DNA of 64,000 nt from the NCBI GenBank assembly GCA_044354475.1, contig JBIKZY010000001.1, forward strand, positions 10,233 through 74,232, read 5' to 3'. A program made the position numbers and the translations under genes. The notes under the pieces were generated by a model. The model was not told the origin of the DNA and did no database searches. It saw nothing but the letters and a program-made list of their open reading frames with translations. Source of the stretch: Phycisphaerales bacterium. GTDB lineage: Bacteria; Planctomycetota; Phycisphaerae; Phycisphaerales; SM1A02. Of this stretch, positions 5,779-36,364 are shown piece by piece; within the stretch, counting starts at the first letter, position 1; every line of letters begins with the position of its first letter.

Positions 5779-5795
5779 GCACTTCCATAAACACA

Positions 5796-9776: not shown

Positions 9777-9807
9777 GTCATTCAAATCTTCAGATCGTCA
9801 ATGCGCT

Positions 9808-10489: not shown

Positions 10490-10529
10490 CCAAAAACAAA
10501 CCAAGGCGACCCATACGGATCGCCCTGGT
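10490..10529 (-). terminator. orphan copy (3) of the family A terminator module with no gene upstream of it
   Basis: The hairpin and T-tract are identical to the other copies. Similarity to the intact 3' UTRs continues to about 10550 and stops where a stop codon would be. A + strand ATPase gene follows instead. Confidence 0.7.
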
Positions 10530-10630
10530 GTTATTCGTATCTCCGATCGACGAGCCCTGTGCACGCCCGCGTGTTCATAAATGGTTTCAAATAGCCGAAT
10601 TAAAAAGTTGCACATAGACGGTAAAAAAGG

Positions 10631-10660
10631 TTTCAAATAGACGCACCTAAAGGTTACAAT
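10631..10660 (+). promoter_or_regulatory. candidate sigma-70-like promoter for the ATPase gene (possible leaderless transcript)
   Basis: TTTCAA, an 18-nt spacer, then TACAAT, with the ATG only 7 nt after the -10 element. It sits in an AT-rich stretch carrying two 12-bp direct repeats GGTTTCAAATAG (10583-10594 and 10629-10640). Confidence 0.3.
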
Positions 10661-10667
10661 CAGCCGG

Positions 10668-19909: not shown

Positions 19910-19981
19910 GCGGGTGTAACTCAGTGGTAGAGTGCCACCTTGCCAAGGTGGACGTCGAGGGTTCGAGTCCCTTCACCCGCT
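19910..19981 (+). tRNA. tRNA-Gly (anticodon GCC)
   Basis: The cloverleaf was folded by hand. The acceptor stem is GCGGGTG/CACCCGC, the anticodon stem CCACC/GGTGG with loop TTGCCAA, and the T arm GAGGG-TTCGAGT-CCCTT. CCA is not encoded. Confidence 0.92.
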
Positions 19982-19990
19982 CTCAAGCTC

Positions 19991-20028
19991 GAAGCCGAAG
20001 GTCATGTGCCTTCGGCTTCTGCGCTTTT
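19991..20028 (+). terminator. rho-independent terminator after the tRNA
   Basis: gaagccgaagg-tcatgtg-ccttcggcttc followed by tgcgctttt. Confidence 0.7.
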
Positions 20029-20157
20029 CCGGGGCGGGCGGCCGCGAAGCGGGCTCCTTCGACCATTCGGGATCCCGGGGCGATTCTTCCCAATCCACAC
20101 ATTTCCGAAAATGGGTGATGACCTGCCCCCCTCCCGTTCGCGCTCTCTGCGAACACC

Positions 20158-21234
20158 ATGCGATCCACCTCCCCCATCCTCGCCGTCACCGCCGCCCTGA
20201 TCGCCCTTCCCGCGTCCTCCGCCGGCGCCCAGGCCACCAAGGTCCGGGGCTGGGGCGAGAACTTCGAGCGCCAGACGATGGCGCCTGTCACGCTGCCGGA
20301 CGCGGTGCAGGTGGCCGCCGGCGAATACCACACCGTGGTGCGGCTGGCCGACGGCACCATCCGGGTGTGGGGCCGGAACTTCGAGGGACAGGCGAACGTC
20401 CCGACCGGCCTCGGCACGGTGGCATCGGTCGCCGCGGGCGAATACTGCACGCTGGCTGTCCTGACCTCCGGCACGGTCCGGGCCTGGGGCTGGAACAACG
20501 GCGGGCAGACCGACGTCCCTGCCGGCCTGAGCGGCGTGACCAAGGTGGATGCGGGCTGGGGGCACTGCATCGCACTGAAGTCCGACGGATCGATCGTCAT
20601 GTGGGGACGCAACGACTCGGGCCAGACCTCGGTCCCGAGCGGGCTCGGCCCGATCCTCGACGTCGCAGCCGGCGGCGACCACACCGTGGTGGTGCTGCAG
20701 TCCGTCGGAACCGTCCGCGCGTGGGGGCGCAACAGCAGCGGACAGGCGACCGTCCCCGCCAACGTCGGCTCGGCCCTCAAGGTCGCGTGCGGCAAGTGGC
20801 ACTCGGTCGCGCTGCGGAGCAGCGACCGAACGGTCCGGCAGTGGGGGAGCTTGAGCGCCGGGGTTCCGACCGGCCTGACGCAGGTGGTCGACATCGCCGC
20901 GGGGAACGGACACACGGTCGCCCTCCGCGCGGATGGAACCGTCCGCGCCTGGGGCAACAACACCGCGCTTCAGAGTTCCATCCCGCTGAACCTCGGGACC
21001 GTGTCCCAGGTCGCCGCGGGCGGGAACTTCTCGCTCGCCATCTCCACCATCGCCACGCCCCCGTGCCCCGGTGACCTGAACGGCGACAAGCTCGTCGACG
21101 GCAGCGACCTCGGGATCCTGATCGGCGCCTGGGGCAGCACCTCCGGCGGCGCCGGCGACTTCGACGGCGACGGCCGCATCACGGGCCTCGACCTGGGCGC
21201 GCTGCTCGGCGACTGGGGCCGGTGCATGGACTGA
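20158..21234 (+). CDS. RCC1-repeat protein with C-terminal dockerin-like anchor
   Basis: It has a signal peptide and repeated RCC1/BLIP-II units (VRGWGENF.., IRVWGRNFEGQ, VRAWGWNNGGQ, IVMWGRNDSGQ, VRAWGRNSSGQ, VRAWGNN). The tail is CPGDLNGDKLVDGSDLGILIGAWG..DFDGDGRITGLDLGALLGDWGRC. Confidence 0.9.
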   Translation: MRSTSPILAVTAALIALPASSAGAQATKVRGWGENFERQTMAPVTLPDAVQVAAGEYHTVVRLADGTIRVWGRNFEGQANVPTGLGTVASVAAGEYCTLAVLTSGTVRAWGWNNGGQTDVPAGLSGVTKVDAGWGHCIALKSDGSIVMWGRNDSGQTSVPSGLGPILDVAAGGDHTVVVLQSVGTVRAWGRNSSGQATVPANVGSALKVACGKWHSVALRSSDRTVRQWGSLSAGVPTGLTQVVDIAAGNGHTVALRADGTVRAWGNNTALQSSIPLNLGTVSQVAAGGNFSLAISTIATPPCPGDLNGDKLVDGSDLGILIGAWGSTSGGAGDFDGDGRITGLDLGALLGDWGRCMD

Positions 21235-21402
21235 GCGGCGCGCTCGCCCGGCGCTCTCCGATTCACCCTTGCAGGCATCATGCAAGGAATCGACGCCGAG
21301 CCCGGCGCCCTCGGGAGCTCCGAGGACGAACAGGTCCTCCGGCCCGAGCCGCGCCGCCAGGCGGTTCGCGTCCGTGAGCGCCGATTGGTGGGCGACCGCG
21401 TG

Positions 21403-21590
21403 TGGACCTCCACCCGATTCGTGGACACCCCCAGGCGGCAGGATTGCACCTGCCGGAGGGAGCGTGTTTCATGGCCACGATGCGAGTTTGTACCCGCGAG
21501 CTTCGTGAGTCCGCCGTCGGCATGGTGCTGTCCCAGGGTCTGCCGCCAAACCGCGTTCAAAGCGCGCAATCTTCCCGCGGAATCTGTTGA
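21403..21590 (+). mobile_element. IS3-family element, left end only: IRL plus truncated orfA N-terminus
   Basis: The IR begins 5'-TGGACCTCCACCCGATTCGTGGACACCC. ATG at 21471 opens MATMRVCTRELRESAVGMVLSQGL.., matching the xxELRExAVxMVLxxG start of IS3 OrfA HTH proteins. The frame ends at 21590 and the rest of the element is absent. Confidence 0.6.
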
Positions 21591-21614
21591 CAGCCCCGTG
21601 GCGTGGGCTAGCAT
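21587..21614 (+). promoter_or_regulatory. candidate sigma-70-like promoter at the IS-remnant/cargo junction
   Basis: TTGACA, a 16-nt spacer, then TAGCAT, 33 nt upstream of the ATG at 21647. The -35 hexamer spans the orfA-remnant stop codon. Confidence 0.3.
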
Positions 21615-21646
21615 TTGGGGATCCTGGCGCCGCCTCGGACTCTCCC

Positions 21647-23062
21647 ATGAAGACTTCCCTCCGGATCCTCGTCGCGGCCGCCTCGCTCGGCCTTTCCGCA
21701 GTGTCGCTCGCCGACTGGTCGAACCTGGGCGGCAACGCACGACAGAACTCGCTCGCCGCGGTGGCCGGCCCCGATGCCGCGACAGCGACGTGGACGCGGA
21801 GCGACATGCCGTGCCTCATCGCGTGGAGCCCGATCACCGAGGGCCACCGCATGTTCACGGTGCGCCAGACCTACGCGTGGGCCCCGTACGAGCCGCCCGC
21901 TGTCGACGCACGCGTGCACTGCCTCGACATCCGGACCAGCGTGACGCTGTGGACGTTCGACTGCCCGTTCGAGCCCGACGACTGGTCGACGGTCGTCTAC
22001 GGCGCGCGCGATGGACGCGTGTACGTGGGACGTGGCGGAAACGGCGCAGCTTCGGCGGCGCGCGTCCACTGCCTGAGCGCGCAGACCGGCGCCGTGCTGT
22101 GGGTGTCGAACGACGAGGTCAGGACTGCGGCCAACGAGGGCATTGCCTTCATGGACGACGGTGACCCGATTTTCGCGAGCCACAACGAGATCCGCCGGAT
22201 CGACGCCATGACGGGCGCGACGGTCTGGCATTCGACGCGCACATGCAGCGTCAGCGGCCATTGCGGGCCGGCACGTGACGGAGATGCCATCTACATCGAT
22301 GAGACCGCGCCCAGCGGCCAGCGGATCTCGCGCTTCAGCGCAGTCACCGGTCTGAGGCAGTACTCCAGCCAGACGATGCCGGGATTCCTGAACCAGAACT
22401 CGCCGTTCTGCGCGCCGGGCGGCTTCGTCTTCTACCTGCGCTCGAGCAACGAGGGGCCGACGGTTGACCTCTTCTACGCCTTCCGCGACACCGGAAGCGG
22501 CTTCGAGCTGCTGTGGACCGCGCCGACCAGGTACGAACCGTTCGCCCGCCACGGCATCACCCCGGACGGAGGCGTGACGCTCCTCTCGCCGCTCGGGCAC
22601 CTGCAGATCCGCGACCAGCAGACGGGCGTGCTCCGGGCCGAATCGGCGAGCCCCGTGCTTGCCGCGCACGGCTTCACCTCGTCGCTCGTTGCGGTCGACT
22701 CGCGCGGCCGCGTGTTCCACAACAACTCGAACGGCGCGGGCGACGTGATCGGCGACCTTCGGGCCTTCTCGCCGACGCTCTCCGAGGAGTGGCGCATTTC
22801 CGTCATGGGGATGAACCAGAGCCCGGCGCTCGCGGCCGACGGCAGCCTGCTCGTGACCGGGACCGACGTGCTGCACCGCTACTGGTCCGCCCCTTGCGCG
22901 AACGCCGACCTCGATTGCGACGGAGCCGTCAACGGCCGCGACCTCGGCATCCTGCTCGGCGCGTGGGGCCCGTGCGCCGGGTCTCCGTGCGCCGGCGACA
23001 TCAATCGCGACGGCACGGTGAACGGCTCCGACCTCGGCGTGCTGCTCGGCGCATGGGGTTGA
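21647..23062 (+). CDS. PQQ-like beta-propeller repeat protein with C-terminal dockerin-like anchor
   Basis: ATG at 21647 gives the signal peptide MKTSLRILVAAASLGLSAVSLA. WSNLGGNARQNS follows, then propeller-like repeats. The tail is DLDCDGAVNGRDLGILLGAWGPC..DINRDGTVNGSDLGVLLGAWG. Confidence 0.8.
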   Translation: MKTSLRILVAAASLGLSAVSLADWSNLGGNARQNSLAAVAGPDAATATWTRSDMPCLIAWSPITEGHRMFTVRQTYAWAPYEPPAVDARVHCLDIRTSVTLWTFDCPFEPDDWSTVVYGARDGRVYVGRGGNGAASAARVHCLSAQTGAVLWVSNDEVRTAANEGIAFMDDGDPIFASHNEIRRIDAMTGATVWHSTRTCSVSGHCGPARDGDAIYIDETAPSGQRISRFSAVTGLRQYSSQTMPGFLNQNSPFCAPGGFVFYLRSSNEGPTVDLFYAFRDTGSGFELLWTAPTRYEPFARHGITPDGGVTLLSPLGHLQIRDQQTGVLRAESASPVLAAHGFTSSLVAVDSRGRVFHNNSNGAGDVIGDLRAFSPTLSEEWRISVMGMNQSPALAADGSLLVTGTDVLHRYWSAPCANADLDCDGAVNGRDLGILLGAWGPCAGSPCAGDINRDGTVNGSDLGVLLGAWG

Positions 23063-23176
23063 CCGAAGGCACGCATACGCCGCATGCCGGCGATCTCATC
23101 TCGCCGCGAAGGCCGCAAGGGCCACCATGCCGAGCGCGACGACCGCCCACGCTGCGGACTCAAGGGCGGAGCACGG

Positions 23177-24430
23177 TCACCCGTACGTGCACCACCGCCA
23201 CAATCGCTCCATGGGGCCGCTGCCGAAGACCCGGGTCCACGCCAGCGCCGCCACCATCAACCCGGCCCATACGCCGATCACTATCGCGGTGAACTGGACA
23301 TCGGTCATGGTGCCGAAGCGGGCCAGTCCCCACCAGGATGCAATGCCAGTGCAGACCAGCGATTCGCAGAGGTACACGGTGAGCCCGATCGAGCCCGCGG
23401 CCTGGATTGGTGCCCGCAGCAGGGTCGGAAGCCGCGGTCCGAACTCGACCGCGAGGCAGGCGTAGCCCACAGGCAGCAACAAGGCGCTCATCTGCAAGGC
23501 AAGCGTGAAGAGCGCGATTGCCGCGGGGCTTTCCCGCCCGAGGAAACACCCCGGCAGCACTGCAGCCGCTGCAAACGGAAGCCCCGCGGCAATCAGTCGC
23601 ACGGCAAGCACGCGTCGACGGGAACTTGACTCTGGCGCGAAGAGCCGAGTCCGCTGCGCCCACACACCGACCAGCATCATGAGGAGCACCTGCCAGCCAT
23701 ACGAGATGGGCGCGATCAGCAAGCTGAGTGCGTAGGAAACCGCTCGGAATGCTGTCGCATCAAGCCATGGCCCTTGGCGGGAGGCGAACGCCTCGGCTTC
23801 GATCCAGGTCCGCGAGGAGATGTCGAAATCAGCGGCCGTCATAGCATCGACGCCGCGCAGCGGATGCTCTGCCACCACCGCGACTGATCCATCGTCCGCT
23901 GCTGCGCCGAAGAACCCCCACTCCATCCCGGCGCTAGCCACGGTGACGAGCAGGACCAGCGCCACAACGCCCATCGTCACCCTGTACAGCCAGCGGTCAT
24001 CCAAGCCGATGCACGCGAGCACCACAGTTCCAATGATCGCGTAAAGCGTCAGGATGTCGCCGTCCCACACGAGCAGCCCGTGCAGTAGGCCGATGGCCAG
24101 CAGCAGCCCCAGCCTGCGGAGGCCCATGCGCCAGCGAGAATGACCCGAGGCCGCGCACCGGGCCGCCTGTTGCGCAAGCCCGAACCCGAACAGCAGCGAG
24201 AACACCGAGATGAACTTGTAGTTGGCGAGCACATCCACCACGTCGTGCACGGCCCAGTCGAGGGAGGATCGCTGCAGCCCCTCGGGCAGCGGGCCTATCT
24301 CGGCCGCCGACGCTGACGGCAGGAAGAAGAAGCGCGCATTCACCACGATGATGCCGAGCAGCGCAAGCCCGCGGGCGATGTCGATGCCCCCGGAACGCTC
24401 GGCGCGGGGAACCGGGATGAGGGATGGCAT
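23177..24430 (-). CDS. DUF418/YeiB-like polytopic membrane protein
   Basis: The N-terminus (RSGGIDIARGLALLGIIVVNARFF) and multiple TM segments match the YeiB/DUF418 pattern. Confidence 0.7.
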   Translation of the reverse strand: MPSLIPVPRAERSGGIDIARGLALLGIIVVNARFFFLPSASAAEIGPLPEGLQRSSLDWAVHDVVDVLANYKFISVFSLLFGFGLAQQAARCAASGHSRWRMGLRRLGLLLAIGLLHGLLVWDGDILTLYAIIGTVVLACIGLDDRWLYRVTMGVVALVLLVTVASAGMEWGFFGAAADDGSVAVVAEHPLRGVDAMTAADFDISSRTWIEAEAFASRQGPWLDATAFRAVSYALSLLIAPISYGWQVLLMMLVGVWAQRTRLFAPESSSRRRVLAVRLIAAGLPFAAAAVLPGCFLGRESPAAIALFTLALQMSALLLPVGYACLAVEFGPRLPTLLRAPIQAAGSIGLTVYLCESLVCTGIASWWGLARFGTMTDVQFTAIVIGVWAGLMVAALAWTRVFGSGPMERLWRWCTYG

Positions 24431-24453
24431 GCGGGCATTATGCCAAAGACGCC

Positions 24454-24499
24454 AAAAAAGACCGATCCCGCGAGCCGCATACGCGACCCGCGGGATCGG
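24454..24499 (-). terminator. rho-independent terminator
   Basis: The minus strand reads ccgatcccgcg-N16-cgcgggatcgg followed by tctttttt. Confidence 0.7.
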
Positions 24500-24524
24500 A
24501 TGTCAAATCACACCAGCGTCGGCA

Positions 24525-25184
24525 TCAGGCGCGACGACGGCTGCGGATCGCCAGCGCGAGACTCGCGAAAGCGACCACGCCCGGGCCGGGGACCAAGATC
24601 GCAGTGCCCAGCGAGCCAATGTTGCCCAACGCATCCGCGGACACAAATCCGACCTGCGTGCCGATCGTTCCGACGGTGCTCACCACGGCCGAATAGTTCG
24701 GGTCGATCGAGCCCTGCGCATCCCAGCCCCAGAAGAAGCTGGAACCGGTAGTTGCGGCGCCGAAGCTGACCTGGTTCACGTTGACGCTCAGGTTGTTGAA
24801 CAAGCAGACGCCGTCGCCGCCGGAGCTGAAGCCGATCCCGCTGCCGGAGTAGTAGCCGACCTGCACGTTGGTGAGGCCGCCCCAGAAGGTGCGGAAGGAA
24901 GCGACGCCCGCGCCGGCTGCGCTTTCGAGGAAGATCACCGACTCACCGGCGCCGATCGAGGTGATGCCGCTGAGCGCAACTGCGGCGTTGATGTTGAAGG
25001 AACCATCGTCCATCTTCCAGCCGGTGAGGCTCACGGCGGAGCTGCCGTCGTTGGTGACTTCAATCCAGTCGGGAGTTCCGTTGGTGCCGCTCGAACTCAT
25101 CACCTCGGTGATGACGATGCCGGCGTGCGCAGCGGGAATAGTGACAGACGTGACCACGAGGGCCGAGAGAAGGGAGTAACGCAT
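24525..25184 (-). CDS. lamin-tail-domain (LTD) protein with PEP-CTERM anchor
   Basis: An internal ATG gives the signal peptide MRYSLLSALVVTSVTIPAAHA. The LTD signature is IVITEVMSSSGTNGTPDWIEVTNDGSSAVSLTGWKMDD. The C-terminus is VPGPGVVAFASLALAIRSRRRA. Confidence 0.85.
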   Translation of the reverse strand: MRYSLLSALVVTSVTIPAAHAGIVITEVMSSSGTNGTPDWIEVTNDGSSAVSLTGWKMDDGSFNINAAVALSGITSIGAGESVIFLESAAGAGVASFRTFWGGLTNVQVGYYSGSGIGFSSGGDGVCLFNNLSVNVNQVSFGAATTGSSFFWGWDAQGSIDPNYSAVVSTVGTIGTQVGFVSADALGNIGSLGTAILVPGPGVVAFASLALAIRSRRRA

Positions 25185-25371
25185 TGAGATAGCTCCAAGT
25201 AAGGGGAAAGGGAAAGGGAAGGGAAACAAAGCAGAAGACGAATGCCCGTGGACGTTTGGAACGCCACGTTGCCCCTTGAACCAAACCTCCGTGTGCAATC
25301 AAACTAAGACAGCCCTGTGAGCAATGTGTTCAGAACCGATGTAGTTGCCGTTCGGACATTGTTTGAATTGT

Positions 25372-28314
25372 TCAGCCCCATTTAGACAGCAGGAATGCGA
25401 GATCCGCACCGTCAACCAATCCGTTCCCGTCCAGATCGGCGGGACACGGTGACGTGCACGGTCCCCACGCCCCCAAGAGCAGGGCAAGGTCGAGCCCGTT
25501 GACGATGCAATCAGCATTCAGGTCGCCGATGCCGTCGCAGATGGCGTTCACCTGGAAGACTGACAGCGTGCCGCTAATTTCGTTTGCCACCAGCACCAGC
25601 GGATAGCCGTTCGGCGATTGCGCAGCGGGGACGAAGCACACGCCCTCGGAGCCAAGGTCACCGGCGTTGCCGCTCGATGGAAGTGCCGTGAAGATGCGAC
25701 TGTTCACGTAGCCCTCGAAGCTTGGCGATGCGGGGGTGTCTACGCAGATGGCGAACAGGCCGCCGATTCGCTCCGCGACGCCGAAGACAAACTGGCGCCC
25801 CGCAACAACGCCGACCGTCACGCCTTCGGGCTCTGGACCCTTCGATCGGCTGCGATTGTCGCGCGTGTTGTTGGTGTGGCTTGCGTTGAAGTAAAGGGGA
25901 TACAAGGATGCCGTGACCTGCTCAAGCAGATCACCGGAGTCCCACACCCGACTGCCGTCCGCGGCCCAGATGGTGACGCCACGTCCGCCGTAGGACACGA
26001 TGCGGTCGAAATCGCCGTCGCCATCAAGGTCACCCAGGTCCTTACGGATCTGCAGGCGGCCCAACCGCGCGTTGCCGCGCAGCCAACTGCGTCCGGGGAA
26101 TACGTGCTTGTCGAGCGTCACAGCGGACACCGTGGTGCCGTCTACGAAACTGCCCCACTCGCGGGCGTCGCCCTCGTTGGCGGTCACGTAGTAATCCTGT
26201 CCGCCAGACCGGAACGCGGCGATCGCGTCCGGCATGTAGGCGCCGTCAACCGGCCATCCACGAATGGCATTCGCACTGTCTTGGTCGCTGGGATCAAGCC
26301 CGTTGCCGGAGAAGGTGATCATCCCGAGCACCGTCGACGCAGGCGACGGATTTGAAGTCAAGAGGCCGGTGGTACGGTCGAACGTGCCCTGCAACTGGAA
26401 ATCGTTGTCGTTGATGACGAAGATCGTGGACGGGTCTCGCATTGCCAGACCCTCCACCTTGTCGCCGACCGCGGCGTAGCCCACGGCGGCAAGGTCAACC
26501 TTCAACGTCTTGCGGACCGGCACGATGCCAGCAGCCGCAAGCTGAGCCGGGGTCATACGTTCAAGCGTTCCGCCGGGACCAGCGATCGACGCAGAGAGCG
26601 TTGAGAGGTCGGTGGCACCGGCAAGGTCGATCTCGTAGATGCGCTTCTGGCTGGACGCACCGACGGCGCTGTCGCGCTCGACCACCAGGAAACGCCCGGG
26701 GCCGAAGGCGCAGGCGTCACCAAGCTTGTCGCTGGCGCCGCCCTCCAAGATGTACGCATACTCGGCAACGACGCTGCGGGTGACGGGATTGAACTTAGCA
26801 ATCCGCACCAGCCGCGAGGCCTTCGAGTTCGCATCGTTCGCCACGTCCGGGTTGTCGAGCGGGCTCTGCACAAAGCAGAACAGCTGGTCATCCCACACCG
26901 CAATCGCCTCAAACCCGCGGTTATCGCGGCGCTGCGCATACACCGCAGGGAACGCCTCGGTCCCCAGCGTCACGCCGTAACTGTTGGCGCCGATCGGCAC
27001 GAAACGCTCGACCATGAGACCGGTCGCATTGAACCGGTACAGCGAAGGTCGGTACTCGTCGCACATCCAGAACGAGCCGTCGGCGGTGCGCACCAAACCT
27101 TCCAGGTCGGCGCCCAGTGGATCGAGCGCGAGTGGGTTGCCAAACAGGTCGCAGGGATCCTCATCGGTGTTCGCCAACCCAGGGGACTGACCGAGCACGT
27201 TCGGAAGACCGGTGAGCGGGGAGCCGTCAGGCTTGCGGAGCAGAAGTTGCCCGGTGAGCGCGAGTGCGTTGGTCGTCGGGTTGTAGGTGAACGTGCAGAT
27301 GCGCGGCTGGTAAGCGGGCAGCACGAACGGTCGCTCGAGCGCCGCATCGCCGTCCAAATTCAGGGGCTCGCAGTTCGGGCCGCGGTCCGGGTTCGCAAGG
27401 AACGTGATCACGCCGGTGGTTGCATCAACGGAATCGATCCACAGGCCGCTGAAGCCGCCGAGCAGAATGTCCTGTCCCGCGGCGGTGGTACCGACCACGG
27501 GCGGTGCAGTGAACGTGGCGGTGGTCAAGGACGCGGTGCCGGAGCCATGGGGCTTGTAGCCAAGAGGACGCACAGCGACAATGGTGCGCGAGGCGATGTC
27601 AACAACCGCCACCGCGCTGTGTTCCTGCAGTGTGGCCCAAGCGGTGGAGGAATCGGCGGAGACAGCGATGTACTCGGGCTCAAGGTCCTGCCCGATGGTT
27701 GGCGAGTTCGGGCCGAATGCGCGGATGGCTGGGTCGATCACGCCGGCGGGCAATCCGTTGAAACCAATGGTCGTGACGCTCGCCTGTGAGATCGTGCCGG
27801 TCACGTCGATGATGCTGATCGATCCCTCTGGGTCAACAACGTAGTTGGCGTCTGGCTCGCCCTCATTGGCGGTCATGACCTTGGTTCCGTCCGGCGTGAA
27901 GCAGACCATGTCCGGACCCGCGCCGACCGTGACAACGGCTACGAAGGTACCGGTGGTGGTGTAGAAGACGATCTTGCCAGGGTCAGTATTGGTTGTGGCC
28001 GAAACGGCAGCCGCGACGAGTCCGTTACGCACGGCCAAACTTTGCAACTGCGCGCCGTACGGCATCATCGGAATGGAGCCAACGCGAATCGGCGCCGCGG
28101 GGATCGAGAGGTCCATGATCTCAACCGAGGCGGAGAGCGCGTTGACCACAAAGGCGCGGGAGGTAGCGGGGTCGTACGCGGCAATCTCCGCGGCGGAGAC
28201 GTCGTATCCACCGGAGGTTGAGCGACCGAGGAACTGCAGCGAGATGAACGGCGTACCCGCGAAGGTTGCGGCACAGAGCGAAGCGGCGAGGAGCGAGGCG
28301 TAGTGCGAGCGCAT
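25372..28314 (-). CDS. large secreted beta-propeller protein (choice-of-anchor-I-like with inserted phytase-like esterase domain) with dockerin-like anchor
   Basis: ATG at 28314 gives MRSHYASLLAASLCAATFAG. The next segment is SAAEIAAYDPATSRAFVVN..VEIMDLS. The phytase-like part is DLEGLVRTADGSFWMCDEYRPSLYRFNATG. The tail is DLNADCIVNGLDLALLLGAWGPC..DLDGNGLVDGADLAFLLSKWG. Confidence 0.8.
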   Translation of the reverse strand: MRSHYASLLAASLCAATFAGTPFISLQFLGRSTSGGYDVSAAEIAAYDPATSRAFVVNALSASVEIMDLSIPAAPIRVGSIPMMPYGAQLQSLAVRNGLVAAAVSATTNTDPGKIVFYTTTGTFVAVVTVGAGPDMVCFTPDGTKVMTANEGEPDANYVVDPEGSISIIDVTGTISQASVTTIGFNGLPAGVIDPAIRAFGPNSPTIGQDLEPEYIAVSADSSTAWATLQEHSAVAVVDIASRTIVAVRPLGYKPHGSGTASLTTATFTAPPVVGTTAAGQDILLGGFSGLWIDSVDATTGVITFLANPDRGPNCEPLNLDGDAALERPFVLPAYQPRICTFTYNPTTNALALTGQLLLRKPDGSPLTGLPNVLGQSPGLANTDEDPCDLFGNPLALDPLGADLEGLVRTADGSFWMCDEYRPSLYRFNATGLMVERFVPIGANSYGVTLGTEAFPAVYAQRRDNRGFEAIAVWDDQLFCFVQSPLDNPDVANDANSKASRLVRIAKFNPVTRSVVAEYAYILEGGASDKLGDACAFGPGRFLVVERDSAVGASSQKRIYEIDLAGATDLSTLSASIAGPGGTLERMTPAQLAAAGIVPVRKTLKVDLAAVGYAAVGDKVEGLAMRDPSTIFVINDNDFQLQGTFDRTTGLLTSNPSPASTVLGMITFSGNGLDPSDQDSANAIRGWPVDGAYMPDAIAAFRSGGQDYYVTANEGDAREWGSFVDGTTVSAVTLDKHVFPGRSWLRGNARLGRLQIRKDLGDLDGDGDFDRIVSYGGRGVTIWAADGSRVWDSGDLLEQVTASLYPLYFNASHTNNTRDNRSRSKGPEPEGVTVGVVAGRQFVFGVAERIGGLFAICVDTPASPSFEGYVNSRIFTALPSSGNAGDLGSEGVCFVPAAQSPNGYPLVLVANEISGTLSVFQVNAICDGIGDLNADCIVNGLDLALLLGAWGPCTSPCPADLDGNGLVDGADLAFLLSKWG

Positions 28315-28339
28315 AGGGTTGTCCAGTCGCAAAGAGGGC

Positions 28340-28697
28340 AGAACCGTTCCGATTGAGTTGGGGATGCTCCGCCATGATCATGTGATTCCCATTCAGGGAG
28401 GACTCACGAACGGTCAAATTGCGGTTAAGTGGCAGGTTGCGCATGACGGCTCAGGCGATGGAGCAGACCTCGCCATGATGGAAAGCCTTTGAGCGACCCT
28501 GAAGAAGGAACTCGTCCAAGATCAGCACTTCCGCACGCACAACGAGCCGCGTGCAGCAATCTTTGAATGGATAGAGGTGTGGGGCCAACAAGTCAGAATC
28601 CACGGCTCACTCGACTACGTCAGCCCCGAAGCGTTCGAGGCGACCGAGAGGGTCGGATAGGTTCGTCATGGGTATCCATGAATGGTGTGCAGGTCCA
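28340..28697 (+). mobile_element. IS3-family element, right end only: decayed orfB (DDE integrase) C-terminus plus IRR
   Basis: The frame ending at TAG 28658-28660 reads ..GSGDGADLAMMESL*ATLKKELVQDQHFRTHNEPRAAIFEWIEVWGQQVRIHGSLDYVSPEAFE. This fits the IS3 OrfB C-terminal pattern DNAxxESxxxxLKxE...EAxxAIFxYIExxYNxxRxHSxLGYxSPxxFE. It carries an in-frame TGA at 28490. The element ends ...AGGTCCA at 28697, and its reverse complement matches the IRL at 23 of 29 ungapped positions. Confidence 0.7.
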
Positions 28698-28704
28698 GCC
28701 GTGC

Positions 28705-29352
28705 TCAGCGGCTTGCTGTATCCAGCCCGATGGGAGGGACCGGAGCGCTGATCACAGAAGAGAGGGCCGCAAGCGATGACACTAGGATCAGGACATACGC
28801 GAAAAACTCGCTTATCTCCTCCCAATAAACACGGTTCACGATGGCTTCGTACTTGTCAAAGAATTCCCCGATGAAGAGGAAGACGCCGCCGGCGATCAAT
28901 AACATCCCGGGCCTTGACTTGATAAATCCTTTCGCCGCTTTCTCGTAGACGCAAAAATTTCTCAAGGCGGCACAGGCGAGTATTGCGATGAAGGCGATCG
29001 CTATCGTCACGTTTCGGCCTGCGCCGGACCCGATGAATATCAGGGGATAGGGGATGTCGAATTTTTCGACATCGAGTTCTCTGAGTACGAAGCTGTAGCA
29101 AAGAAGGGAGCAGAACAAAAAGATCAGTTTCCCTGGTTTCTCTTTGAGCGCGGCCGCCGCCAGATAGACGATGCAGGAGACGGCCAAAAGAACGGTCTGC
29201 ATGGTTTCGATCAGCCCGTTTTCGACAGACATGCGGGCTTGATCATCAAGAGAAGAGCGCAAGGACCAAAAGACGAATCCGATCCAGGCACATATTGTGG
29301 CGGCGCTTATGGCATCGACGCCGTTTTTCAATATGGTCTTCTTTTTAGGCAT
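28705..29352 (-). CDS. hypothetical polytopic membrane protein (low-GC islet)
   Basis: ATG at 29352 opens MPKKKTILKNG... About 5-6 hydrophobic helices are visible. No family is recognised. The GC content is visibly lower than the surroundings. Confidence 0.6.
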   Translation of the reverse strand: MPKKKTILKNGVDAISAATICAWIGFVFWSLRSSLDDQARMSVENGLIETMQTVLLAVSCIVYLAAAALKEKPGKLIFLFCSLLCYSFVLRELDVEKFDIPYPLIFIGSGAGRNVTIAIAFIAILACAALRNFCVYEKAAKGFIKSRPGMLLIAGGVFLFIGEFFDKYEAIVNRVYWEEISEFFAYVLILVSSLAALSSVISAPVPPIGLDTASR

Positions 29353-29636
29353 GACGATCCGATTTGGACGTGTTGCCCTTATGGCGGGTCCGGGATTCTT
29401 AACCAATCACCCATGCTACGTTAACAGTTGTTCGCGCCGGATGTCGCTCAGGTCTTCAAAGGGGACATTGCGAACAGCGAGAGCGAAAGCCGCCCAGACG
29501 CAACATGGTCGCTAAGTAGTGCATTTCAGCACCGCGGTGTTACCCTAAAAGTCTGAACCCGCCGCTTCACAGTGGACTTAGGACTTGTCGGGCGCGCGCA
29601 CCCACAACTACCCCCACAGCGCGGAGTACCCCTGCA

Positions 29637-30026
29637 ATGACATCCATCAAGTTCTACAAAGGAGCCGGCTCAAGTACGGTGCTCTTCAACAGCAACGGTC
29701 GCAACTTCTATGAGGGCGCCGGCTCAAGCAAAGTACTACTCAACGTGAGCGGCACCAAGGCCTACGAGGGCGCGGGTAGCTCCAAGGCGCTGTTCACCGT
29801 GTCCGGCACAAAGGTGTACCGCGCCGCAGGCACATCGGAGTGCTTGTGGAACATCACTGGCGGCAAGGTGTACGAAGGCGCTGGTTCCTCCAAGGCGCTG
29901 TTCAACATCTCCGGCACCAAGCTATACCGCGGCGCAGGGACATCGGAAGTGGTGTGCAACTGGTCCGGCGGCAGCCTGGAAACAAGCGAGATTGCGGCGA
30001 TGGTGTGGTTGATTGAAGCGCCGTGA
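29637..30026 (+). CDS. hypothetical protein made of six 18-aa repeats (xYxGAG[ST]Sxx[LV]xNx[ST]Gxx, repeats 1 and 4 slightly degenerate)
   Basis: The repeats are read directly. Repeat copies differ mostly at synonymous sites (for example agc versus tcc for Ser), which argues for real coding under selection. Confidence 0.65.
   Translation: MTSIKFYKGAGSSTVLFNSNGRNFYEGAGSSKVLLNVSGTKAYEGAGSSKALFTVSGTKVYRAAGTSECLWNITGGKVYEGAGSSKALFNISGTKLYRGAGTSEVVCNWSGGSLETSEIAAMVWLIEAP
29652..29975 (+). repeat. 6 x 54-bp in-frame tandem repeat (108-bp super-repeat) within the CDS
   Basis: Copies 3-4 and 5-6 pair as YEGAGSSKALFx[VI]SGTK + xYRxAGTSExxx[NW]x[TS]GG[KS], with Cys and Trp only in copies 4 and 6. Confidence 0.85.
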
Positions 30027-30076: not shown

Positions 30077-30328
30077 ATGAGCGAGACACCTGCACCTCCG
30101 ATTCAACTCGTCCCAGGGAATTCGTTGATCACTAAGACGCCAGAGGAGGGGCGGATGCTTGCCATCAAGATGTCGAGGCTCATCATCAAGGCCACCCAGC
30201 CCGACAACGCAGTACGTGAACGGCTCCGCGGGGTCTATGCCGAAGATGCCGGCATGTTGATCGCCATCGGCCAGACAGTCGCTACTGAGTTTGCGACCAT
30301 CGCTGCTGCCAACAATTATTGGCGATAA
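30077..30328 (+). CDS. small hypothetical protein (83 aa)
   Basis: The call rests on the ORF alone. There is no recognisable motif and no obvious Shine-Dalgarno sequence. Confidence 0.35.
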   Translation: MSETPAPPIQLVPGNSLITKTPEEGRMLAIKMSRLIIKATQPDNAVRERLRGVYAEDAGMLIAIGQTVATEFATIAAANNYWR

Positions 30329-30504
30329 CGAGGCCGGAAGAGTTTGTATTCCGTAAATGCGTTGCCTTTGCTTGCCTTGCTTTCATTACGTGGCACACTT
30401 CTAACTCTTAGAGAGGCTGTGAAAAGGGGTCGTCCGCGCACATTCCCGTGTGCACGGACGGGTGTGTTGTTTGTCCCTTTCCCCTGTTAGATAAGTTTCC
30501 AGCC

Positions 30505-31065
30505 ATGATCACCAACAAGTTGTTTCTCTCCGGGTTTGCCACCGTTGCTCTCATTTCATCCGCCGCATCTGCTGACGTGACGATTTCGTTCACCGGCTTG
30601 ACGCTCGCTGGATACCAATTCGCCGAGGCCATCACGCCCGGGCAGATCGCTGGCACGCTGACTGGCGCCACCATCAATGTTGAAATGACCAATTCGTTTT
30701 GGTTCACAAAGGCCAACGATTTGACCCTGTACATGGACGTCGCTCCCCTGAGCACCGGCGGTCTGCTGCAAATCGGTGGCGCGGTGAATACCGGCGCCGC
30801 TGAGCGTCGTGCATGGCCAACCGGTGGCGGACTCTTCTCCACCACCTCCACCGGGCGCGTGGACTTGGACAACGCCATCGACCTGGCAAACCATCCAACC
30901 ATGTCATTCTGGGTTGGTAACGGTCGCGAGAGTTACATCGCGTCCGGAACATGGACCGGAAGCATCGTTCTGCATGGCGTCAGTCTGGTGGGTGTGCCCT
31001 CCCCAGGTGCCCTCGCCCTGCTGGCAGTGTCAGGCATGGTTGCCCGTCGCCGTCATCGCGCGTAA
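30505..31065 (+). CDS. PEP-CTERM sorting domain protein, family A paralog 5 (divergent)
   Basis: An internal ATG gives MITNKLFLSGFATVALISSAASAD. The core aligns with family A (DLTLYMD..GGLLQIGG..WPTGGG..SGTWTGSIVLHGV). The C-terminus is VPSPGALALLAVSGMVARRRHRA. Confidence 0.85.
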   Translation: MITNKLFLSGFATVALISSAASADVTISFTGLTLAGYQFAEAITPGQIAGTLTGATINVEMTNSFWFTKANDLTLYMDVAPLSTGGLLQIGGAVNTGAAERRAWPTGGGLFSTTSTGRVDLDNAIDLANHPTMSFWVGNGRESYIASGTWTGSIVLHGVSLVGVPSPGALALLAVSGMVARRRHRA

Positions 31066-31094
31066 GCGTGGCGGCTGCCGAGTAACCTGACCTG

Positions 31095-31604
31095 ATGACC
31101 GTCAATACCAAGACCGCCGCACGTCGTCACCTGTTCTTCAAGTGCATGGGATGTCTGCGCGGTGAATTGGATCGGATCGAGGCGGCATATCGTGCTGGAA
31201 CGCTGACCACCACCGGTAACTGGACGCCGGGTCAGAACCTTGACCACTGCGCGGTGCCTCTTGAGGAGGGCCTTGACGGCTCGACCAAGAAGGTGTCGTT
31301 CGTGGTGCGGCTCTTTGCCAAACTGATCAAGCCGGTGATCCTGAAAGCAAAGCCCGACGCAATGCGTCCGGGATTCAACGTCGGCAAGTCCAACCCGGAG
31401 CTCATGCCCAGCCCCGGCGTTACCTTTGAGCAAGGCATGGGACGAATCCGCAAGGCGCTCGCACGGATCGAAGCCGGCGAGCGCATGACCAAGCCCAGCC
31501 CGTGGCTCGGCGCCATGACGCACGAGGAATGGGTGCGGCTCAACCTGAACCACACGGCCATGCACTTTGGATTCTTGACGTACCCGGGGGCGGCACCTCT
31601 TTAG
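31095..31604 (+). CDS. DinB-superfamily / DUF1569-like protein
   Basis: The C-terminus (LGAMTHEEWVRLNLNHTAMHFGFL) resembles the DUF1569/DinB helical-bundle His motif. Confidence 0.5.
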   Translation: MTVNTKTAARRHLFFKCMGCLRGELDRIEAAYRAGTLTTTGNWTPGQNLDHCAVPLEEGLDGSTKKVSFVVRLFAKLIKPVILKAKPDAMRPGFNVGKSNPELMPSPGVTFEQGMGRIRKALARIEAGERMTKPSPWLGAMTHEEWVRLNLNHTAMHFGFLTYPGAAPL

Positions 31605-31613
31605 AATGCCGGT

Positions 31614-34600
31614 ATGAGATCGATCTACACGGCTGCCGGGGCACTCCTGTTTGCAACACACGCACTGTTCGCACAGATGGTCGCAACAGCGCCCACTACT
31701 CCACCAGCGATCGCAGCGCCGGATTGGCTGCTTGATCAGCCCAAGGTGATCGCAGAAGCGAAGGATGTCACCACCGAGAAGTACCCAGACGCCGACACGG
31801 TAATGGTCTCTGAATACCAACGCACCGAATACAAGGCGGACGGAAGTTTTGTGACCCTTGATGATCAGTATGTGAAGGTGCTCACCGAGGCTGGCCGTAC
31901 GAATGCTCGGGAGCGCGCCTTTGGTTTCGATGCCGCATACGGCGGTATGGAAATCCTTGGAGTCGATGTCATCAAGCCAGATGGTGCGGTGACTTCACAT
32001 GATCCATCGCGGATCAGTAAAGAACAGGTGAGCACATCAAGTATGGGCGCGAACATTTTCGATCCGAATGAAAAGATGGTCGTTGCGGCCGTGCCGGGAG
32101 TAGAAGTGGGCGACCTTGTGCATTTCTATGTACGCAGCTGGGAATCGAAGCCGCGTATGCAAGACAACTTTGCAGACCTGTGCGTGCTCGAATCGCCAGA
32201 TCCAATCAAGAATTGCGTCTACGAATATGTGTGCCCGAAGGATCGACCGCTGCGCAGCAAGGCACTGCTCGCGGAGATCAAGGGAACCGTCACATCGTCT
32301 GAGCGCACCGACGGTGACAAAGTCATCTGCACATGGACCGGCAAGGACATTCCGCAACTGTTCCCCGAGCCGCAGATGCCTGACTACTACACAGTTGGGC
32401 AACGCCTGCGCGTCAGCACACTTGCTGACTGGAAGGAAGTGAGTCGCTGGTACTCCAAACTCACCAAGCCGCACTTGGATGCAGTAACCCCCGAAATGAA
32501 GGCGAAAGTGGCCGCAATCACCGCCGGACTCAAGACCGACGAAGAGCGCATCAAGGCGATCTTCAAGTTTGTCAGTCAAGAGGTCCGCTACATGGGCATC
32601 ACCACAGAGAAGGACGCCCCCGGCTACGAACCGCACGATGTCAACATCACCTTCGAGAATCGATATGGCGTGTGTCGCGACAAGGCTGCGCTATTAGTGG
32701 CACTGCTTTCCGTTGCCGAGATTCAATCGTTCCCGGTGCTTGTGAACGCTGGCGAGAAACTTGATGTTGAAGTTCCGTCCTTCTGGTTTAATCATGCCAT
32801 TACCGCGGCGCGTGGCAAGGATGGCAAGTACATCCTGATGGACAGCACCGATGAGAGCACCGCCGATTTGTTGCCGCAATATCTGCAAGACAAGAGTTTC
32901 TTGGTTGCCACACCGGAGGGCGAAACCCTCATGACGTCACCGGTCGCATCCGCCGATGACAACATGATGACCGCCAAGACCACCGTCAAAGTGGCTGACG
33001 ATGGCAGCGCTACCGGCACCACCGTGATCGCCTTTGAAGGCATCAACGACAACGCTTACCGCGGGTCCTTTCTGCAAGCCAAGCCCGCCGATATCCGCCG
33101 CGGTTTTGAGGGCGCAGTCAAAGGAATGCTGCCTGGTGGAACACTCACCGGCATGAGCCTCACGCCGAAAGACATGAAGGACAGCACGCAGAAGATTCGC
33201 CTCACTCTTGAATGGACTGCGCCGAATCTCTTGGTGGCGGGCGGCAACGCTGCGCAACTTGATCTTCCGTACATGGGCTACGGCTTCGGCGTTGTCACAC
33301 GGATGATCGGCGCGGGGCTACAGCTTGACAAGCGCCGATTTCCGCTGGTGATGCAACAGCCGTGCGGGGTGCATGAAGACTTAGAAATCACCCTGCCCCC
33401 AAGTTTGGGAGCGCCGATTGCGCTGCCGCAATATGAGAACACCGAGCATAAGGACTTCACCGTTTCGCAATTGATTTCAGCGACGTCGGGGCAAATCAAT
33501 GCCTCCATTGATATCCGCGTGAAGTCACCGGAAATCGCACCCGACCAGTACCCGCTCCTCAAACGCGCCATGGCAAATATGGAAATCAATGGCCGACAGC
33601 AGCCCGTGTTTACGCGGGTTTCAACCACTAACGCACCGCCAGCTCCGAGCGCGAATTTGGAAATCGTTCACACGACGCGGACGCTCCGCATGGACAGCCC
33701 AACGAGCTGGTCGACGCGACGCGAGGTGACGGAGAAGGTGCTCACCACTGCAGGAGTGAAATCGGCAAGCGAACTCCAGATTGACTACAACCCTGCGTGG
33801 GAAACCGCAAAGCTTGAGTATGCACGGGTCACCCAGAAGGACGGCACCGTTCGTACTGTGAGGCCCGAGGAAATCAATGTGATGGACGCGGGAGGGGTGG
33901 CCAGTGCGCCGCGCTATCCGGGCGGGAAGACGTTGGTGGTTTCCTTGCCGGGCGTCGAAGTGGGTTCGACCATTGAGTACGCGGTGACGGAGACCGCTAA
34001 GGAGCAGCTCATCTTCAGTAGTGGCGCTGCATTCACAACCAGTGACCGCATTCGTGAGATGGTGCTGACCTATGACCTGCCGGACGGAGTCACTCCGAAG
34101 ATGGAAATGGACTTCCCCGCCGAAGGCCACATGACTGAAGAGAAGAAGGACGGGCGGCGCGTCATCACCTTCACATGGAAGGACCTTGAGCCGCGCCAGC
34201 GCGAGGCATCTGCCCCGCCATCATGGATGGATTCACCCGATTTCATCATGAGCGCTGGTAGCTGGACCACCTACGCCACCGAAGTGGGTAGCCACGCAAA
34301 TCCCATGCTTGTTGGGCAAACCGCCAGTATCGCCAAAGCCAAAGAATTGGCTGCAACCAAGGACACCCCGGTTGCCCAGATGACTGCCATCCGTGACTTT
34401 GTGGCGCGACAGATTCGCACCGACGGTCCAGGCCTCGGTTCACTCCCGCTCTCCGCAGCATTCTCGCCAGCCGATGTGACGCTGAAAGATGGCTACGGAA
34501 ACTTTGACGACCGATCAATCCTCCTCTGCACCATGTTGCGCGGTGCGGGCTTTGACGCGGAGATTAACTTGGCTTCGTGGGGCACGAAGGAACCAACCAT

Positions 34601-35477: not shown

Positions 35478-36364
35478 ATAACGTAAGTGACATCACCCGT
35501 AACGGCGCAAGCGATGTCACTCAGCGGAGTGTTGCCACAGCGATTGTTCGATTTCAAGGCGATGCGCGCAGCGAACTGACTGACCGGGTGGCGATTGAAG
35601 AGCCGCTGGAGATTCGCGTTGACTTTGTTACCAACGGTGAGCGTTGCGTCCGTAGCCTCTCCATCACCATGCGCACGCCGGGGCAGGATGAAGAGTTGGC
35701 CGCCGGATTCCTGATGTCCGAGGGGCTGGTGCGTTCTGCGCGCGACATCGAATCGATCCGCCCGTGTGGCCCCGAGAGCGGCGCTCACGATGGAAACAAT
35801 GTGGTCAAAGTACGCCTTGCCGATCACGCCACCATTTCATGGCCAAGCGTGGAGCGGCACTTTTACGCAACTTCTAGTTGCGGCGTGTGCGGCAGAGCAT
35901 CGCTTGAGGCATTGGAAGTGCCCGGACTGTGCCCCATTCCGCGCGATGGATTCCGCTTTCCGGTTGAGGCCGTTCGCATGTTGCCCGCTCGCCTCCGCGC
36001 GCAACAATCAGTGTTTGAAGAAACCGGCGGACTGCATGCGGCAGCGCTCTTTAACTCAGCGGGCGAAATACTTGCTATCCGCGAAGATGTTGGGCGCCAC
36101 AACGCCGTCGACAAGTTGCTCGGTGCGCAGTTCTTGCAGGGGCATACGCCACTCGCACGCAACCTGCTCTTCCTGAGCGGGCGCATCAGCTTTGAACTTG
36201 CGCAGAAGGCGCTGGCAGGCGGTATTCCGATGGTGGTGGCGGTGGGTGCCCCGTCCAGCCTGGCGATTGAACTTGCAAAGCGATTTGACATTACGCTGAT
36301 CGGATTCCTGCGCGGCGAGCGCTTCAATGTGTACAGCGGCGAATGGCGACTGACTGGCGACTGA
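35474..36364 (+). CDS. fdhD: formate dehydrogenase accessory sulfurtransferase FdhD
   Basis: The motifs SSCGVCGRASLEAL, GGLHAAALF and EDVGRHNAVDKLLG are present. There is an ATGA overlap with the upstream gene. Confidence 0.9.
   Translation: MNNVSDITRNGASDVTQRSVATAIVRFQGDARSELTDRVAIEEPLEIRVDFVTNGERCVRSLSITMRTPGQDEELAAGFLMSEGLVRSARDIESIRPCGPESGAHDGNNVVKVRLADHATISWPSVERHFYATSSCGVCGRASLEALEVPGLCPIPRDGFRFPVEAVRMLPARLRAQQSVFEETGGLHAAALFNSAGEILAIREDVGRHNAVDKLLGAQFLQGHTPLARNLLFLSGRISFELAQKALAGGIPMVVAVGAPSSLAIELAKRFDITLIGFLRGERFNVYSGEWRLTGD

Follow-up and report, generated by a model that had tools for sequence, protein, structure and literature searches.

The DNA considered here is a 64,000-nucleotide stretch (the window) of contig JBIKZY010000001.1 from a Phycisphaerales bacterium. 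Between positions 21403 and 28697, two fragments of an insertion sequence (IS) of the IS3 family lie on the plus strand and enclose four genes. The left fragment carries the left inverted repeat (IRL) and the start of orfA, and the right fragment carries the end of orfB and the right inverted repeat (IRR). An earlier note on this window read the 7.3-kb stretch as one unit, a split IS with surface-protein genes in place of its transposase. Comparison with related loci points to a different history. The two fragments most probably go back to two separate insertions of one 1271-bp IS, each cut short by its own deletion, in a hypervariable array of surface-protein genes linked to a tRNA-Gly gene. 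The features of the region are listed below. Related loci are designated by L numbers, and positions within the IS (nt) are those of the intact 1271-bp copy on L120.

19910-19982, plus strand: tRNA-Gly(GCC) (ARAGORN; Rfam RF00005, 69.3 bits), which anchors the variable region
19966-20028, plus strand: attachment-site-like (att-like) unit, consisting of the last ~17-20 nt of the tRNA, AAGCTCG, a terminator hairpin (variant hpB) and CTGCGCTTTT
20158-21234, plus strand: RCC1-repeat dockerin protein gene (Pfam RCC1_2, 1.2e-55, and Dockerin_1), outside the IRL
21403-21545, plus strand: left IS3 relic (IS nt 1-143), with the IRL (21403-21430), the 5' untranslated region and the first 24-25 codons of orfA
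21546-21646, plus strand: upstream region of the PQQ gene, derived from the 3' part of a pseudo-tRNA-Gly and homologous to the IS-free loci L086 and L088
21647-23062, plus strand: PQQ-propeller dockerin protein gene (Pfam PQQ_2, Dockerin_1), accessory
23177-24430, minus strand: DUF418/YeiB-like membrane protein gene (Pfam DUF418, 3e-24; NCBIfam YeiB-like), accessory
24446-24450, no strand: junction at which the window is without ~1.3 kb of L090 and L115 (an att-like repeat and an RCC1-like dockerin paralogue) and at which L009 has an AAA-like gene
24525-25298, minus strand: LTD-domain protein gene (Pfam LTD, 2.8e-15), conserved at the locus
25372-28314, minus strand: gene for a 980-aa choice-of-anchor-I/phytase-like/dockerin protein (Pfam choice_anch_I, Phytase-like and Dockerin_1; NCBIfam), conserved at the locus
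28315-28458, no strand: upstream region of the choice-of-anchor-I gene, not IS-derived and colinear with the IS-free L005; the homology ends in GGCTCAGGCG at 28458
28472-28697, plus strand: right IS3 relic (IS nt 1045-1271), with the last ~62 codons of orfB, including an in-frame TGA, and the IRR (28670-28697)
28705-29406, minus strand: low-GC gene for the membrane protein p215/p233, with 8 bp between its stop codon and the IRR
29619-30026, plus strand: rep129 repeat-protein gene, 5'-truncated and without the 41-aa signal-peptide N-terminus found in L005
58621-58655, minus strand: third relic, a solo left end (IS nt 1-35) that matches the IRL consensus at 27/28 positions (blastn to L120, 88.6% identity, E 9e-7)

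The relatives used for comparison are metagenome contigs or contigs of metagenome-assembled genomes (MAGs) throughout. Exact and near-exact copies of the choice-of-anchor-I gene occur on JGI freshwater metagenome contigs, and a scan of GTDB genomes assigned the lineage to Phycisphaerales MAGs of the Lake Mendota type. The loci fetched numbered 111, of which 31 are PQQ-gene loci from a metagenome scan with the PQQ protein and 80 are choice-of-anchor loci.

The identity of the IS is established by an intact copy at positions 160-1430 of the metagenome contig L120, found with a reconstructed OrfB as the query. Its orfA (228-527) encodes 99 aa with an HTH_Tnp_1 domain (PF01527), and its overlapping orfB (524-1393) encodes 289 aa with HTH_21/rve domains (PF13276, PF00665, PF13683, PF13333). 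An A7G slippery run lies ahead of the overlap, and the ends are ~28-bp imperfect inverted repeats of the form 5'-TG...CA-3'. A decayed contiguous copy of 1116 bp occupies positions 5225-6340 of L003, a 33-kb metagenome contig. Its reconstructed OrfB scores 243.8 bits on NCBIfam model NF033516 (cutoff 160), a cutoff that the window fragments are too short to reach. Overlapping orfA (HTH) and orfB (DDE/rve) genes, a slippery run of the frameshift type, the NF033516 score and the TG...CA ends are all features of the IS3 family, so the assignment made in the earlier note from the ends of the two fragments is borne out by L120, by NF033516 and by the rve_2 match described below. The nearest annotated plasmid transposases share 47% identity in OrfB, and as far as the searched collections show, the IS is an unnamed lineage of Phycisphaerales-type freshwater metagenomes.

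A protein search with the orfB C-terminus had at first returned 114 relatives, all of 39-125 aa, which raised the suspicion that the IS lineage was extinct or that these were deletion derivatives forming a family. The longer query, the reconstructed OrfB, returned many full-length relatives of 289 aa, and these together with the intact copy refute that idea. The short orfB-tail proteins were called as genes where a copy has decayed or a contig ends. Some decayed copies (proteins P0005, P0006, P0024 and P0026) carry a 5-codon unit, MESxG or LESLG, repeated 2-5 times in tandem just before the conserved ESLWATLKKE.

Both window relics belong to the same IS3-family species, and they are colinear with the ends of the single contiguous copies L003 and L120. 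The earlier note had called for a search for such a copy, and had considered that the two remnants might derive from different IS species; one species accounts for both. The left relic begins with TGGACCTCC at 21403 (the longer reading of this end is TGGACCTCCACCCGATTCGTGGACACCC), and its IS identity runs to ...CAGGGTCTGCCG at 21545. It matches L003 at 127/143 positions (89% identity) and L120 at 86.7% over 143 bp. The ATG at 21471 is the start of MATMRVCTRELRESAVGMVLSQGL..., a frame that ends with a stop codon at 21588-21590. Residues 1-24 of orfA are 83% identical by tblastn, and the last 15 of the 39 codons of this frame are not orfA. The left piece of the earlier note, 21403-21590, is accordingly IS only as far as 21545. 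The right relic starts at CGCCATGATGG (28472, perhaps from about 28466), after a 13-bp filler at 28459-28471. Its frame reads ...AMMESL*ATLKKELV...IHGSLDYVSPEAFEATERVG, matches Pfam rve_2 (E 3.9e-8) and rve_3, and ends in a TAG at 28658-28660, with ...AGGTCCA ending 37 nt further on at 28697. The identity is 90.3% to L120 over 227 bp and 85% to L003 (194/227 positions, window 28471-28697). The earlier note had placed the start of the right piece at 28340. The part from 28472 to 28697 is IS, and 28340-28458 is upstream DNA of the choice-of-anchor-I gene that is also found in the IS-free L005. The positions it gave for the IRL, the ATG, the stop at 21590, AGGTCCA and the 37-nt gap all hold. The portion of the IS absent between the two relics is 901 bp (nt 144-1044 of 1271) rather than the ~750 bp first estimated. 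The 64-kb window contains no orfAB or intact copy and no other large IS piece. Neither relic is expected to be functional.

The ends of the two relics match each other as inverted repeats. The reverse complement of the right end agrees with the left end at 23/28 positions, and position 29 is mismatched, so the 23 matching positions reported earlier stand. Three query sequences of 28 nt (the window IRL and 2 consensus variants) were scanned against both strands of the 64-kb window, and only 3 sites scored >19/28, namely 21403, 28697 and 58655. The inverted-repeat match is far beyond chance. Both window repeats have a T at position 16 (ATTC; 21418 and 28682), and the sequence there is AATC in the left ends of L090, L114, L120 and L121 and in the right ends of L003, L043, L116, L118 and L120-L122. 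L043 shares the right relic yet retains A at position 16, and the common T is probably a coincidence. The outer flanks of the pair are GTG on the left, ending ...GACCGCGTG, and GCC on the right, beginning GCCGTGCTC..., with no target-site duplication (TSD), as the earlier note had found. This test of the relic pair is weak, since the intact or contiguous copies L120, L121, L122 and L003 have no clear 3-5-bp repeat around them either; the TSD check is thus uninformative.

Relics of this IS are dense. The third relic, at 58621-58655, sits in the spacer between two minus-strand open reading frames (ORFs), of which at least the upstream one (58743-59438) has a PEP-CTERM-like tail. L003 also has a 46-bp solo left end at 10474-10521, 4 kb from its decayed full-length copy and in a polysaccharide-synthesis cluster. 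Solo-end pieces were found in L003 and L114, and short terminal relics of the L120-type IS are common. When 2 left-end relics and 1 right-end relic were placed at random in 64 kb, an ordered, same-strand pair within 7.3 kb arose in ~10% of trials. A reader scanning many windows is expected to meet such a split-IS pair.

The history of the right relic is seen by comparison with L005, which is 96% identical to the window. Bases 318-3086 of L005 correspond to window 28457-25689, and bases 1-166 correspond to window 29784-29619. The 152 bp between these segments encode the signal-peptide N-terminus of rep129, and L005 has neither the right relic nor p215. The DNA present only in the window on this side is the relic, p215 and 212 bp (28459-29618, GC 0.52-0.55). 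Removal of the relic and p215 restores the adjacency of the choice-of-anchor-I gene and rep129 seen in L005, which means that the piece inserted there is the relic with p215 and not the 6.9 kb between the relics. By this comparison, the relic and p215 block appears to disrupt the 5' end of rep129. The rep129 gene encodes a GAGSS-repeat protein, and its L005 counterpart lies at L005:1-267 on the reverse strand.

The right relic is always joined to p215. The pair is present in L043, L116, L118 and L119 and absent from L005. The GC content of p215 (28705-29352; GC 0.52-0.55) is well below that of its surroundings, no Pfam family was found for it, and its relatives beyond its own population are 40-67% identical, the named ones mostly from Proteobacteria. 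The low GC content and the distant, mostly proteobacterial relatives suggest that p215 was acquired laterally. At its inner end, the relic differs among lineages. In the window, L043, L001 and L002, it starts at nt 1045 and is joined to the choice-of-anchor-I upstream region, the join in L043 being identical to that of the window. In L116, it starts at nt ~1103 and is joined to an HTH_3 gene. In L118, it keeps nt ~862-913 and ~1006-1271, and its neighbours at the join are 80 bp from the 5' part of rep129 and an HTH_3 gene. The TGA stop in ESL*ATLKKE is common to the window and L118. A common stop codon with three inner ends and three partners implies one ancestral copy beside p215 that was eroded independently. 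L118 (reverse complement, 281-360) also has a duplication of 64 bp from the 5' region of rep129, with a copy on either side of the relic and p215 block.

These observations bear directly on the idea that a single IS was split by a 6.9-kb foreign insertion with the loss of 901 bp. The two relics complement each other without overlap (nt 1-143 and nt 1045-1271), and they are on the same strand and in the right order, just as a split element would be. After such an insertion, the DNA inside should be foreign, and the outer flanks should at one time have been connected through the IS. Instead, taking out the relic and p215 gives the gene adjacency that L005 has. In addition, the ancestor shared with L118 had a right relic that reached at least to nt ~862 and abutted a rep129 fragment. 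The left junction is followed by upstream DNA that belongs to the PQQ gene and that, in the IS-free relatives, runs into a pseudo-tRNA. We give the split of a single element only a very slight chance.

The four enclosed genes are, by Pfam, as the earlier note described them. They do not share one history. The choice-of-anchor-I gene is 91-96% identical in nucleotide sequence in L005, L009, L043 and L090, which is the same level as the flanking core, and it adjoins the LTD gene in L009, L090 and L115 as well as in L008, which is 72% identical. By eye, the VPGP...RRRA tail of the LTD protein resembles PEP-CTERM, but an NCBIfam search gave no match for it. In L009 (91% nucleotide identity), bases 1-2728 correspond to window 27189-24455 and bases 3994-11279 to window 20031-12727, with 91.0% identity in both segments, so that the LTD/choice-of-anchor-I segment is diverged to the same degree as the outer core. 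Between them, L009 has a 348-aa AAA/RuvB-like gene instead of window 20031-24455. The 4.4 kb that L009 lacks consists of the RCC1-dockerin gene, the left relic, the PQQ gene and the DUF418 gene, and it coincides with a block of 0.65-0.73 GC that starts 1.4 kb to the left of the IRL. The RCC1-dockerin gene itself (GC 0.70-0.73) and the genes inside the IRL are parts of one accessory block of high GC. The LTD/choice-of-anchor-I pair keeps its synteny with the tRNA-Gly side in L009 and, in L005, with rep129, and its divergence equals that of the flanks; for these reasons it is ancestral and resident at the site, not cargo. The 7.3-kb stretch has three GC domains, and the 6.9 kb between the relics is a mosaic of the accessory high-GC PQQ and DUF418 block, which continues leftward into the RCC1-dockerin gene, and the vertically inherited LTD/choice-of-anchor-I pair.

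A mosaic of this kind is difficult to reconcile with a mobile insertion cassette (MIC), that is, a non-autonomous element in which the IRL with the start of orfA and the end of orfB with the IRR bracket four passenger genes that are moved in trans. The outward-facing ends, the TG...CA termini, the 23/28 match and the absence of a transposase inside would all suit such an element, and intact relatives of the IS exist in metagenomes. However, relatives keep the LTD and choice-of-anchor-I genes at the site without either relic, and the DNA on the outer and inner sides of the right end is adjacent in L005. The unit occurs nowhere else among the 31 PQQ-gene and 80 choice-of-anchor loci. There is no TSD, the enclosed DNA is heterogeneous in composition, and the window holds no intact copy. 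A cassette of this type is extremely unlikely.

A former composite transposon, in which two full IS copies bracketed and moved the 6.7 kb and then lost their inward halves, resembles the preferred reading in that it starts from two copies, separate and directly oriented, that have both suffered a deletion on the inward side, and the structure suggests as much. Of the options raised in the earlier note, this one is structurally closest to the data, but nothing shows that the pair ever transposed anything. The bracketed genes are syntenic with both outer flanks in the relic-free L009 and L005, which argues that they were not imported as a unit. The left accessory block extends past the IRL, the right relic arrived with p215, which is outside the bracket, and only the 143-bp and 226-bp fragments remain, with no functional IS copy in the window. 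We consider a composite transposon highly unlikely. The common element of the three options in the earlier note, one unit carrying four genes, fails because the segments that are present or absent in relatives have separate histories; a 7.3-kb unit at other loci, as it had envisaged, was not seen among the 111 loci, and these do not gain or lose the unit as one piece either. The same note had also named the outcome in which the genes are ancestral here and the IS fragments were inserted independently, and this largely describes what was found, in that the LTD/choice-of-anchor-I pair is ancestral and each relic has its own segment history.

The left relic belongs to a different segment from the right one. 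Among the 31 metagenome loci with the PQQ gene, 8 are close; 4 of these have no IS upstream (L086, L087, L088 and L113), 3 carry the relic, and L085 begins inside the relic. The DUF418 gene accompanies the PQQ gene in L085 and L090 and is absent from L009. In L086 and L088, the PQQ gene has its own upstream region. The homology of L086 to the window begins at 21544, and in L086 it is preceded by the decayed 5' two-thirds of a tRNA-Gly (L086:1649-1694), a pseudo-tRNA in which ARAGORN called no tRNA. The window (21546-21600) retains just the 3' part of this pseudo-tRNA-Gly, joined to the IS relic. The IS and the pseudo-tRNA have the microhomology CCAGGGT in common at the join. Since the PQQ upstream DNA of the IS-free L086 runs into the pseudo-tRNA-Gly, the right part of the left copy was apparently deleted together with flanking DNA, and not displaced. 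A promoter-like TTGACA-16-TAGCAT at 21587-21614, found by a promoter scan, lies outside the relic and is conserved in IS-free relatives.

The junction at nt 143 is common to the window, L090 and L112. The outer flank of the left relic is not: the window and L112 have the RCC1-dockerin gene there, whereas L090 and L114 have a different dockerin gene, and two independent assemblies show each of these arrangements. L090 (93% identity) matches the window from the exact first base of the IRL (21403) to 24446, and in L090 the other dockerin gene ends 17 bp before the IRL. The presence of the nt-143 junction in all three loci implies that the left truncation is older than the change of flank. In L114, the relic is reduced to 38 bp and is fused to PQQ position 21728 at a GGCGGCA microhomology. 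Recombination within the left relic was also considered. Five of the 16 mismatches between the window and L090 fall in the first 22 nt of the IRL, which is not significant (hand-calculated binomial P ~0.07). The 3.04-kb block 21403-24446 (the truncated IRL end, PQQ and DUF418) was tried as a one-ended mobile unit and rejected, as there is no IRR-like sequence near 24446 or at the equivalent position in L085 and L090; elsewhere in L090, the best match of a search for a cryptic IRR was 20/28. The 168-bp spacer at 21235-21402 has a 56-codon minus-strand reading without an NCBIfam match.

The setting of the left relic is a hypervariable array beside the tRNA-Gly gene. The same tRNA-Gly is found in L009, L090 and L114, and the homology of the window to these three stops at 20028-20031, ~46-50 bp past the tRNA. 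The tRNA was the only match of an Rfam scan of the window between 19 and 31 kb. The candidate att sequence is CTTCACCCGCTCTCAAGCT, and the terminator hairpin that belongs to the att-like unit has two variants, hpA and hpB. The unit recurs as a second direct copy in L090 (4579-4640) and L114 (5293-5360), and contig L112 opens with a copy at positions 1-56. A distal direct repeat of the tRNA 3' end is thus present in L090 and L114; none was found in the window. The cassettes follow each other in different orders, in which t' denotes a partial repeat of the tRNA 3' end. L009 has the tRNA, hpA, the AAA gene and LTD. L090 has the tRNA, hpA, gene X, the block of truncated IRL end, PQQ and DUF418, then t'-hpB, an RCC1-like gene and LTD. 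The window has the tRNA, hpB, the RCC1-dockerin gene, the same IRL-PQQ-DUF418 block and LTD. L114 has the tRNA, hpB, t'-hpA, gene X, a degraded relic, ~9 kb of lectin/TIG/propeller genes and the AAA gene. The core of L114 (72-4617) is 66-72% identical to the window, whereas its cassette (5289-6960) is 93-97% identical to L090 and the window, which suggests that the cassette was recently exchanged between species. The block 20029-24446 resembles a tRNA-linked island in its insertion just 3' of the tRNA and in the empty site of L009. Neither the genes of the window nor the tested large ORFs of the L114 island gave a match to an integrase or recombinase domain. Indel polymorphism continues far to the right of the relics: window 30327-31094 (768 bp) and 31597-35546 are absent from the close relatives L043 and L116, and a 1287-aa DUF3857/transglutaminase-like gene lies at 31614-35477.

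Taken together, two independent insertions with separate decay account well for both sides of the locus. The left copy would have lain upstream of the PQQ-dockerin/DUF418 cassette. One deletion would have removed IS nt 144-1271 and flanking DNA into the middle of the pseudo-tRNA-Gly before the PQQ gene, joining the ends at CCAGGGT. The right copy would have lain against the stop codon of p215, and the block of IS and p215 would have disrupted the 5' end of rep129. The inner part of the right copy would later have been eroded by different deletions in different lineages, and in the window lineage such a deletion would have brought IS nt 1045 up against the DNA upstream of the choice-of-anchor-I gene. 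The match and colinearity with the intact IS, the segments present or absent in relatives and the sequences of the junctions are observed directly; we infer both the order of these events and that deletions, not insertions, made the junctions. The outward-facing, complementary geometry would then be coincidental, and the tendency of IS relics to sit at rearrangement seams may have helped to produce it.

Several points weigh against this account. No compared contig spans both relic sites, and no genome was seen with one relic and without the other. No relative has a fuller IS at the left site, and none has a right-site copy that includes nt 1-143, which means that the two copies are deduced from their context and not from overlapping parts. 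The TSDs are unusable, as noted above. Simple decay does not account for the exact switch of flank at the first base of the IRL, after a truncation that both states have in common; a further IS copy may have mediated it by recombination. Finally, contigs from metagenomes and MAGs can be chimeric at repeats, and the states of L005 and of L009 are each represented by one contig.

This last point raises the question of whether the differences among relatives are assembly chimeras, with the arrangement of the window alone being real. The breakpoints do coincide with repeats, namely IS ends and repeats of the tRNA 3' end. Nevertheless, both states of the left flank (window and L112; L090 and L114) and the adjacency of HTH_3 and the relic (L116 and L118) each appear in two independent samples. 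The relic repeats are short and 10-15% diverged, and the L005 junction reads as the intact start of a gene with a signal peptide. Assembly error is very unlikely to explain the pattern.

The flank switch could instead reflect a role of the relics themselves, as portable homology or as fragile sites, in the exchange of surface-gene cassettes. Variable segments would then tend to have their boundaries at IS ends or at breakpoints within the IS. Such a role is compatible with two independent insertions and would add a mechanism to them. The switch falls exactly at the first base of the IRL (window and L112 versus L090 and L114), the right relic has three different partners at its eroded end, genes of the PEP-CTERM type also flank the third relic, and the cassette of L114 is 93-97% identical despite a core of ~72%. 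On the other side, the cluster of substitutions at the IRL tip is not significant, no donor configuration was found and the sample of loci is small, and recombination of the tRNA-att type could explain much of the cassette turnover without an IS. We regard relics as seams as possible, though somewhat unlikely. A broader version, in which dead IS ends and tRNA-Gly 3'-end repeats both serve as portable seams for swapping dockerin/PEP-CTERM cassettes, even across species, is more doubtful still. If it were true, the split-IS picture would be a by-product of a cassette-shuffling system that has no resident integrase or transposase.

It is common for a variable region to contain decayed pieces of IS3 elements, and in this respect the locus is ordinary biology. 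It carries a caution, in that a convincing geometry of IRL and orfA start facing orfB end and IRR can come from two independent relics when they are dense (three in 64 kb), and it takes synteny with relatives to tell a cassette from a chance arrangement. The comparison has also defined an intact IS3-family element, 1271 bp long, from freshwater metagenomes of the Phycisphaerales type. The tRNA-Gly hot spot, with its fast turnover of dockerin-type genes, may be of interest for studies of cell-surface variation in planctomycetes.

The locus can be compared with four known systems. IS3-family elements have orfA and orfB and a programmed -1 frameshift, as exemplified by ISSau2 (PMC5771124) and IS2 (PMC3219604). 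L120 is like them in its ORFs, slippery run and inverted repeats. The window holds the ends of such an element but differs in having only 143-, 226- and 35-bp fragments without a transposase. MICs have bracketing inverted repeats, no transposase and usually a TSD, and are mobilised in trans, as in the qnrD 'mic' elements (PMC3913671). The window resembles MIC231 of Bacillus cereus and the qnrD elements in having IS-type inverted repeats around non-transposase genes, and the likeness is one of geometry only. Mobility is what defines MICs, through a TSD, the occurrence of one unit at several sites and mobilisation in trans, whereas the window pair has no TSD and no second locus, and relatives of the window carry the bracketed genes in place without inverted repeats. 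Composite transposons such as Tn5 and Tn10 consist of two copies of one IS that flank other genes. The likeness lies in the two flanking copies, but those of the window are dead, the enclosed genes are partly ancestral and nothing indicates that the pair moved. Islands linked to tRNA genes, and integrase-less remnants flanked by att sites (cis-mobilizable elements, CIME-type), build up by tandem accretion. Unlike these, the loci examined here have no integrase, the window has no second att-like repeat and the cargo consists of dockerin/PEP-CTERM surface proteins. The likeness is found in the start 3' of tRNA-Gly, the tRNA 3' end that recurs distally in L090 and L114, the empty site of L009, the atypical GC content and a cassette shared across a core of 72% identity.

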